Virus record (IMG/VR): IMGVR_UViG_2529292716_000006
Reading direction: 5' to 3' (one strand)
From: a virus
Lineage: Duplodnaviria; Heunggongvirae; Uroviricota; Caudoviricetes
DNA: 15,047 nucleotides
In this document: one piece after another, positions 11,043 through 11,421 of the stretch
How the letters are laid out: every line of letters starts with the position of its first letter
Numbering within the stretch: position 1 is the first letter of the stretch
Notes under the pieces: generated by a model
What the model was told of the DNA's origin: nothing
Seen by the model: the letters and a program-made list of their open reading frames with translations, nothing else
The model's database searches: none
Translations under genes and position numbers: made by a program

Positions 11043-11096
11043 CATGAGCGCAAAAATCAAATACGGCCTGTCAGCTGCTGTTCTGGCGCTGATTGC
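11043..11096 (+). pseudogene. Endolysin remnant: first 18 codons of an RrrQ-like SAR lysozyme
   Basis: MSAKIKYGLSAAVLALIA is a signal-anchor-release-like N-terminus matching, from memory, the start of the Qin lysozyme RrrQ. Similarity stops at 11096, where the frame runs into the tandem array and terminates at 11212-11214. Confidence 0.4.
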
Positions 11097-11100
11097 AAAA

Positions 11101-11216
11101 TGGCATCTGAATCGATCGCAGTTTGGCATTCGAATCGATCATGATTTGGCATCCATCTCCGATCACAGTTTGGCATCACAATCGATCACGATTTGGCATA
11201 CTTCCGATCATTGATT
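11101..11216. repeat. Tandem array of five imperfect 23-24-bp repeats (TGGCAT-N5-6-CGATC-A-N-GATT), each with one GATC
   Basis: Units at 11101-11123, 11124-11146, 11147-11170, 11171-11193 and 11194-11216. GATC sites at 11114, 11137, 11161, 11184 and 11206 (spacing 23, 24, 23, 22 bp). Confidence 0.85.
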
Positions 11217-11421
11217 GGAATTCGCCAGTCACTCCGGGAATTAACTCTTTTCACCACAGTCTCCATTGCCGTGTTTAAACCAGTGGAGACGTCAATGTCC
11301 AAAAAGAGAAAATCCAGGAGCACTATGGAAACTTGTTTTAAGATCCTTCAGCTCAAGTTCGATAAGAAGCTGACTAACTGAGGTGTACTGGCAATAGCGG
11401 ACACTACCATTTGTTCTTTTT

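Follow-up and report, generated by a model that had tools for sequence, protein, structure and literature searches.

Elements of the IS21 family present at both ends terminal inverted repeats (TIRs) composed of multiple direct repeats, L1-L2 on the left and R1-R2 on the right, and two complete repeats are needed for integration (Spinola-Amilibia et al., PMC10122671). Each repeat holds two conserved regions with about 10 variable bp between them. The HTH-1 and HTH-2 domains of the transposase IstA touch these two regions through the major groove, and the 23-bp separation of the repeats favours supercoiled crossings around the IstA tetramer (PMC10122671). The same organisation of the TIR is described in PMC11208146.

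The window analysed here is the whole 15,047-bp stretch of phage DNA, to which all positions refer. In it, an endolysin gene breaks off next to a phased tandem array of short repeats (Table 1). This array is almost certainly the left TIR of ISSso4, an IS21-family element that entered the endolysin gene of a lambdoid prophage at codon 17-18. The 285 bp that follow the endolysin remnant are nucleotides 1-285 of intact ISSso4, and identity is complete over this length in copies from S. sonnei pSS_046, E. coli PapRG-04-4, E. coli CE0026f and E. albertii plasmids. BLAST of 11043-11400 finds 3,043 places, spread over 2,102 of the 5,426 complete E. coli genomes searched, and 420 plasmid records whose hosts include E. 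coli, Shigella, E. albertii and Salmonella. Of the matches listed, the best are 100% identical over 11094-11378 and are annotated 'istA: IS21-like element ISSso4 family transposase'. This BLASTN check of contiguity thus finds the segment continuous with istA of ISSso4 in other genomes.

Table 1 Features at the interrupted endolysin locus
Feature	Position	Strand	Basis
5' remnant of prophage endolysin (R) gene	11044..11093	+	Identity to mEp460
ISSso4 first 285 bp: left terminal inverted repeat, leader, first istA codons	11094..11378	+	100% identity
Five direct repeats, 22-24 bp, TGGCAT-N5-7-CGATCA-N-TT; putative IstA sites L1-L5	11101..11216	+	Predicted from sequence
Sixth, degenerate repeat unit	11217..11239	+	Intact counterpart in L009, L010
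Hairpin; 3' arm holds GGAG Shine-Dalgarno of upstream istA start	11259..11290	+	Repeat search, fold
istA start, cut by IS600	11295..11378	+	28 codons from ATG 11295; 18 from RefSeq-type start 11325
IS600 (IS3 family), 1,264 bp	11379..12642	-	100% identical to IS600 in S. sonnei plasmids

Four ISSso4 copies were compared in context: those of S. sonnei pSS_046 (where the copy sits within an IS600-like element), an E. coli ICE, an E. coli chromosomal island and an E. albertii colicin plasmid. The common start TGCAAAATGGCAT is identical in all four copies and in the window, and the DNA to its left is unrelated. The first base of the terminus TGCAAAATGG does not shift between L001, L003, L004, L005 and the window, although all five flanks differ. 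We place the left end of ISSso4 at 11094 because the common sequence starts there whatever the flanks. In chromosomes, plasmids and prophages alike the TGCA terminus is fixed and the array stands directly upstream of istA, its first unit lying 7 bp inward of the precise terminus. Intact ISSso4 measures 2,638 bp and ends ...GGAATACGCA (...ACGCA), with target duplications at intact copies of 7 bp (CTCAGGC), 5 bp (TTCCT) and 6 bp (CCTGCT). The gene order is istA then istB. IstA of the intact copy contains an rve domain and a Mu-transposase C-terminal domain (Mu-transpos_C_2) and is homologous to IstA of IS5376 (PDB codes 8B4H and 8Q4D); IstB matches PF01695 (IstB_IS21). RefSeq labels the two products 'IS21-like element ISSso4 family transposase' and 'helper ATPase IstB'. 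The original prediction had named, among its readings, the terminal binding-site array of an unrecognised mobile element. The end of a mobile element it is, but of a recognised and RefSeq-annotated one, ISSso4 of the IS21 family; the array is already known as an ordinary ISSso4 left TIR and is no new regulatory array.

The position of the break in the endolysin gene can now be given. The sequence at 11043-11096 is 100% identical to the 5' end of the endolysin gene of phage mEp460, about 17.7 codons counted from 11044, in agreement with the stop of similarity after 18 codons that had been noted at the outset. Past 11096 the mEp460 gene continues ...attgctgcaggcgcg and diverges from the window. 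Alignment to the intact gene places the boundary of the insertion sequence at 11094; identity runs on to 11096 by chance, because the target reads ...GAT|TGC and ISSso4 starts TGC. The array had been said to replace the body of the endolysin gene. It does not: the array is part of an insertion of which the first 285 bp remain, the rest having been lost later together with the downstream part of the gene. We looked for the array in frame within intact endolysin genes, and it is absent from those examined. The rest of mEp460 R and its Rz gene have no match anywhere in the window. Among complete E. coli genomes, no record spans query positions 1-336 and thus the exact endolysin::ISSso4 junction; the matches that start at query positions 22-44 are chance flank similarities at separate insertions, as checked for match H1 only. 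Among phage records none contains the full array, the matches being either the 54-bp endolysin start or remnants of insertion sequences annotated as partial transposase.

The array itself conforms to its first description as five 23-bp units with one GATC each. Tandem Repeats Finder (TRF) reports an array of period 23 at 11101-11199 (score 98) and a double unit of period 47 at 11113-11224 (score 136), and a repeat search returns five direct copies spaced 23, 24, 23 and 22 bp apart. By script, TGGCAT starts at 11101, 11124, 11147, 11171 and 11194 (steps of 23, 23, 24 and 23 bp). GATC, once per unit, starts at 11114, 11137, 11161, 11184 and 11206, so that a helically phased cluster is present, with 23, 24, 23 and 22 bp between sites. 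A sixth, degenerate unit, TGGAATTCGCCAGTCACTCCGGG, follows, in which GATC has decayed to AGTC; at the same position the relatives L009 and L010 have a good unit, TGGCATCCTG(T/C)CGATCAC. The window holds 28 GATC in 15,047 bp, and five inside 97 bp have a Poisson probability of ~5e-7 per 97-bp stretch at this background rate. Among 2,000 mononucleotide shuffles, 45 gave a comparable GATC cluster anywhere, regular spacing not yet being required. This shuffle test of clustering is weak because the shuffled sequences hold about twice as many GATC, and given the homology evidence the statistic is not needed.

Inspection of the opposite end provides a second view of the same unit. In intact copies the right end reads, from the tip inward, TGCGTATTCCGCTCTATTCGATCACGGAT TGGCATCGAAGTTCGATCAGCGAT TCGCATCCATTCGATCAACCGGG, that is, three units in inverted orientation, found in the intact L001, L003 and L005 as well as in the relatives L009, L010 and L016. 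The GATC sites lie 20, 44 and 66 bp from the tip at the right end and 21, 44, 68, 91 and 113 bp from it at the left end. In L004 (E. coli CE0026f) the right end is shortened to ...CCCCGGTTGTTCGAATAGAGTGGAATATGCA, the inner two units being deleted and GATC lost; the number of units therefore varies at the right end also.

Relatives extend the comparison. Eleven related loci with 79-92% IstA identity come from Serratia, Klebsiella, Erwinia, Buttiauxella, Rahnella and Enterobacter, and those with a readable left end show TGCAAAA at the tip and between 3 and 6 units behind it, so that copy number changes by whole units. Two units are present in a remnant from an Stx2 prophage. Over a set of 59 units, conservation falls on TTGGCAT and CGATCA with variable bases between them, and GATC is preceded by C (position -1) in 56 of 59 and followed by A (position +4) in 52 of 59. 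As the units were anchored on GATC, its four columns are invariant by construction and carry no information of their own; we rely on the flanking columns, on TRF and on the repeats found by period. Repeats of about 23 bp that bear GATC are also seen in distant relatives with 43-51% IstA identity. In ISVch3 (Vibrio) the units are of the form ccGATCA...tttcgg, and in ISFK1 (Bradyrhizobium) of the form GATCgtgagc...atttc; in both, as for the GATC repeats of ISEc12 (E. coli), autocorrelation peaks at 23 bp. ISRme9 (Cupriavidus), with gtGATCA...tttcgg units, has its strongest periods at 21 and then 23 bp, and in ISBmu3 (Burkholderia), which has the ISRme9-type unit, the periods of 23 and 21 bp are tied. 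The left ends of ISVch3, ISEc12, ISRme9 and ISBmu3 (L020, L021, L023 and L024) continue from direct GATC repeats into inverted copies, for example ccgaaatcggtGATCgg, a palindromic arrangement of sites that ISSso4 does not have.

By homology to IS5376 and IS21, the units of the array would be where IstA binds at the left end of ISSso4. A literature search on ISSso4 returned genome surveys only and no ISSso4 biochemistry. In the model taken from those elements, IstA would bind several direct repeats per end, its two N-terminal helix-turn-helix domains reading two blocks in each, and the 23-bp spacing would let both ends wrap the IstA tetramer as supercoiled crossings. The blocks here are TGGCAT and CGATCA, and the phased GATC would therefore lie at the centre of one of the two blocks that IstA recognises.

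Tandem repeats of about 22 bp are also iteron-like in size and number, and an iteron or operator array of the prophage, made of replication or repressor sites, had accordingly been offered as an alternative. The distribution data refute it. The full array occurs in no phage record searched and is always followed by istA, with no replication or repressor gene adjoining, and inverted copies of the unit lie 2.5 kb away, at the opposite end of the insertion sequence. Neither linkage to an initiator or repressor nor linkage to a phage or plasmid backbone is found, which leaves this reading with a negligible probability. The repeats could likewise be taken as coding, for an ORF of 56 aa at 11044-11214 starts at the endolysin ATG, reads through most of the array and would fuse the endolysin N-terminus to a repetitive peptide. 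The period of 23 bp is no multiple of 3, as had been pointed out in calling a coding repeat unlikely, the ORF has no Pfam match, and the repeat is conserved as DNA at both ends of the insertion sequence and in both orientations. We give a coding repeat practically no credence; the ORF is an accidental fusion product.

The identity of the array as the left TIR of ISSso4 bears directly on the phased GATC, which the original prediction had read as a Dam/SeqA cluster and methylation-dependent switch, possibly tied to a prophage-encoded DNA methyltransferase. Parts of this reading hold. The five GATC do recur every 22-24 bp, Dam is present in the host family, an effect of N6-methyladenine is known for IS10 and IS50, and a PF01555 (N6_N4_Mtase) methyltransferase gene does exist at 4860-5918, 5-6 kb upstream of the array. 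The major-groove contacts of IstA (PMC10122671) make an effect of N6-methyladenine on binding plausible, and a Tn5 reference on the methylation effect is cited in PMC3971601. But the array belongs to a transposed element that travels with its istA, not to the phage, and the prophage methyltransferase is unrelated to it because the array came on the transposon. The conserved block CGATCA, moreover, is wider than GATC. Relatives from Cupriavidus, Burkholderia and Bradyrhizobium, hosts that are not known to have Dam, have GATC in every repeat too, which argues that GATC is ancestral to the transposase site and was not selected for Dam. A GATC conserved for its own sake, confined to Dam-positive hosts and free of any other motif, is not what we observe, and a literature search on IS21-family ends and Dam found no paper linking them. 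It is quite unlikely that a Dam/SeqA cluster or switch explains the array; a Dam effect is at best a secondary modulation of transposase binding and not the reason for the array.

A narrower proposal concerns the intact element. A Dam site lies at the core of every putative IstA unit of ISSso4, five on the left and three on the right, and with IstA reading the major groove Dam could therefore modulate transposition. That the transposition of the enterobacterial ISSso4 group is modulated by Dam, for example by a coupling to the passage of the replication fork as in IS10 and IS50, or that its hemimethylated ends are sequestered by SeqA, is possible, if doubtful. Were it so, the modulation would be a by-product and not an adaptation, because relatives in Dam-less hosts share the motif, and the orphan end in the window would itself be without a role. 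A possible effect of Dam methylation on IstA binding in the ISSso4 clade is the sole point of modest interest here.

The leader between the array and IS600 is also that of ISSso4. The inverted repeat, the ATG at 11295 and the ORF cut by IS600 had all been described correctly, and the ORF is the start of istA. The arms of the inverted repeat (11259-11268 and 11281-11290) are 10 bp long and 90% complementary, pairing GTCTCCATTG with CAGTGGAGAC, so that the GGAG ahead of the ATG is covered. The RNA fold has an energy of -23.2 kcal/mol (z = -2.75), lower than that of any of 200 shuffles. Eight relatives retain the stem, but as only 1 of its 10 pairs shows a compensatory change, a structural role for the hairpin is plausible, not proven. 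Such a hairpin would occlude the ribosome-binding site and limit translation of istA from read-through transcripts, as in other insertion sequences. The annotated istA start of L001, at 3732, corresponds to window position 11325, which is the RefSeq choice. The two ATGs, at 11295 and 11325, are in frame and 10 codons apart, each with a GGAG-like ribosome-binding site, and both are conserved with their Shine-Dalgarno-like motifs in relatives down to 79% IstA identity. In IS21 two in-frame starts yield a transposase and a shorter cointegrase, and the two conserved ATGs of ISSso4 may be their counterpart. A sigma-70 promoter scan of 10900-11420 gave no promoter-like site, and we therefore claim no istA promoter within the repeats.

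What lies beyond istA points to a rearrangement. ISSso4 meets IS600 at 11378/11379, and this IS600 has no target duplication (AAC at 11376-11378, GCC at 12643-12645). An identical IS600 at 6653-7916 does have one, of TCC (6650-6652 and 7917-7919). The missing duplication at the second copy indicates recombination or intramolecular transposition of IS600. A third IS600, inverted and partial, occupies positions 1-287. On the far side of the IS600 next to ISSso4, at 12643-14459, the minus strand carries another member of the IS21 family, distinct from ISSso4 ('IS21-like element IS21 family'), which matches the 'IS21' copy of phage fiAA91-ss at 99.7% identity. Its left end is at 14459 (TGTCAGCGCC / TGTCAGCGCCAGTG), its istA is broken into ORFs at 13189-13668 and 13679-14209, and it breaks off at the IS600 junction, 250 nt before the 3' end of istB, and has no right end. 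Two unrelated IS21-family remnants thus face each other over one IS600. The different, inverted remnant beyond IS600, together with the lack of a duplication, argues for an IS600-mediated rearrangement. After ISSso4 had entered the endolysin gene, this rearrangement truncated it: istB and the right end were lost entirely, as were the greater part of istA and the remaining endolysin sequence. Within the window the rest of ISSso4 and of the endolysin gene and the Rz gene are absent. ISSso4 is dead here, its array an orphan end that is at most bound in trans by IstA from intact copies, and the lysis cassette of the prophage is dead as well. The annotation of the locus is corrected accordingly, to an endolysin gene inactivated by ISSso4, itself truncated through an IS600 rearrangement; this is the typical prophage decay by insertion sequences of Shigella-like genomes. 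Phased tandem repeats beside a gene break should be tested first as transposon ends.

Several neighbouring features were recorded. An Rfam scan of the whole window found nothing in 11043-11378; its matches elsewhere are three tRNAs, two STnc100 and sok. The tRNA genes (Met-CAT, Arg-TCG, Arg-TCT) and the two copies of the STnc100 sRNA lie at 5959-6208, 6285-6474 and 8019-8228, the STnc100 copies flanking the first IS600. The tRNA genes are downstream of the methyltransferase gene, which itself follows the antiterminator Q gene (3466-4287). This tRNA/STnc100 region, upstream of a nanS-p-like esterase gene at 8451-10304, is the position of stx in Stx phages, and stx is absent from the window at that position. 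The match to the sok antitoxin RNA (1127-1302, 112 bits), beside the partial IS600 in the early region of the prophage, is consistent with a hok/sok-type module. At 14460-14710 on the minus strand, bordered by the IS21-like left end on one side and an IS1 copy (14711-15047) on the other, is a fragment of a candidate comM/yifB Mg-chelatase-like gene, assigned by eye from its translation. With the fragment in this position, the prophage region ends in a mosaic of insertion sequences and gene fragments.

Comparison with the elements described so far places ISSso4 within a familiar architecture. As with other insertion sequences that carry Dam sites, namely IS10, IS50/Tn5 and IS903, GATC falls within sequence that the transposase must recognise. 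There, only one or two GATC are involved, overlapping the transposase promoter or the inside end, and their effect is demonstrated; in ISSso4, by contrast, GATC recurs in every repeat, and the motif is common to relatives in Dam-less hosts. Like IS5376 and IS21, ISSso4 ends in CA and has multiple direct repeats per end, 23 bp apart and more numerous on the left, with about a helical turn between the two blocks of each repeat. Its repeat sequence, TGGCAT/CGATCA, is unlike theirs, and the IstA proteins of ISSso4 and IS5376 are distant relatives only (E = 1e-13). The units also differ in number: five good and one decayed on the left and three on the right in ISSso4, against 2-3 on the left and 2 on the right in IS5376 and IS21, so that the left-end count of five to six exceeds the archetype's 'usually at least two'. 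This excess and the distance between the IstA proteins weigh against the assignment. Set against intact ISSso4, the remnant in the window keeps 285 of 2,638 bp, and over these its terminus, repeats, hairpin and istA start are the same.
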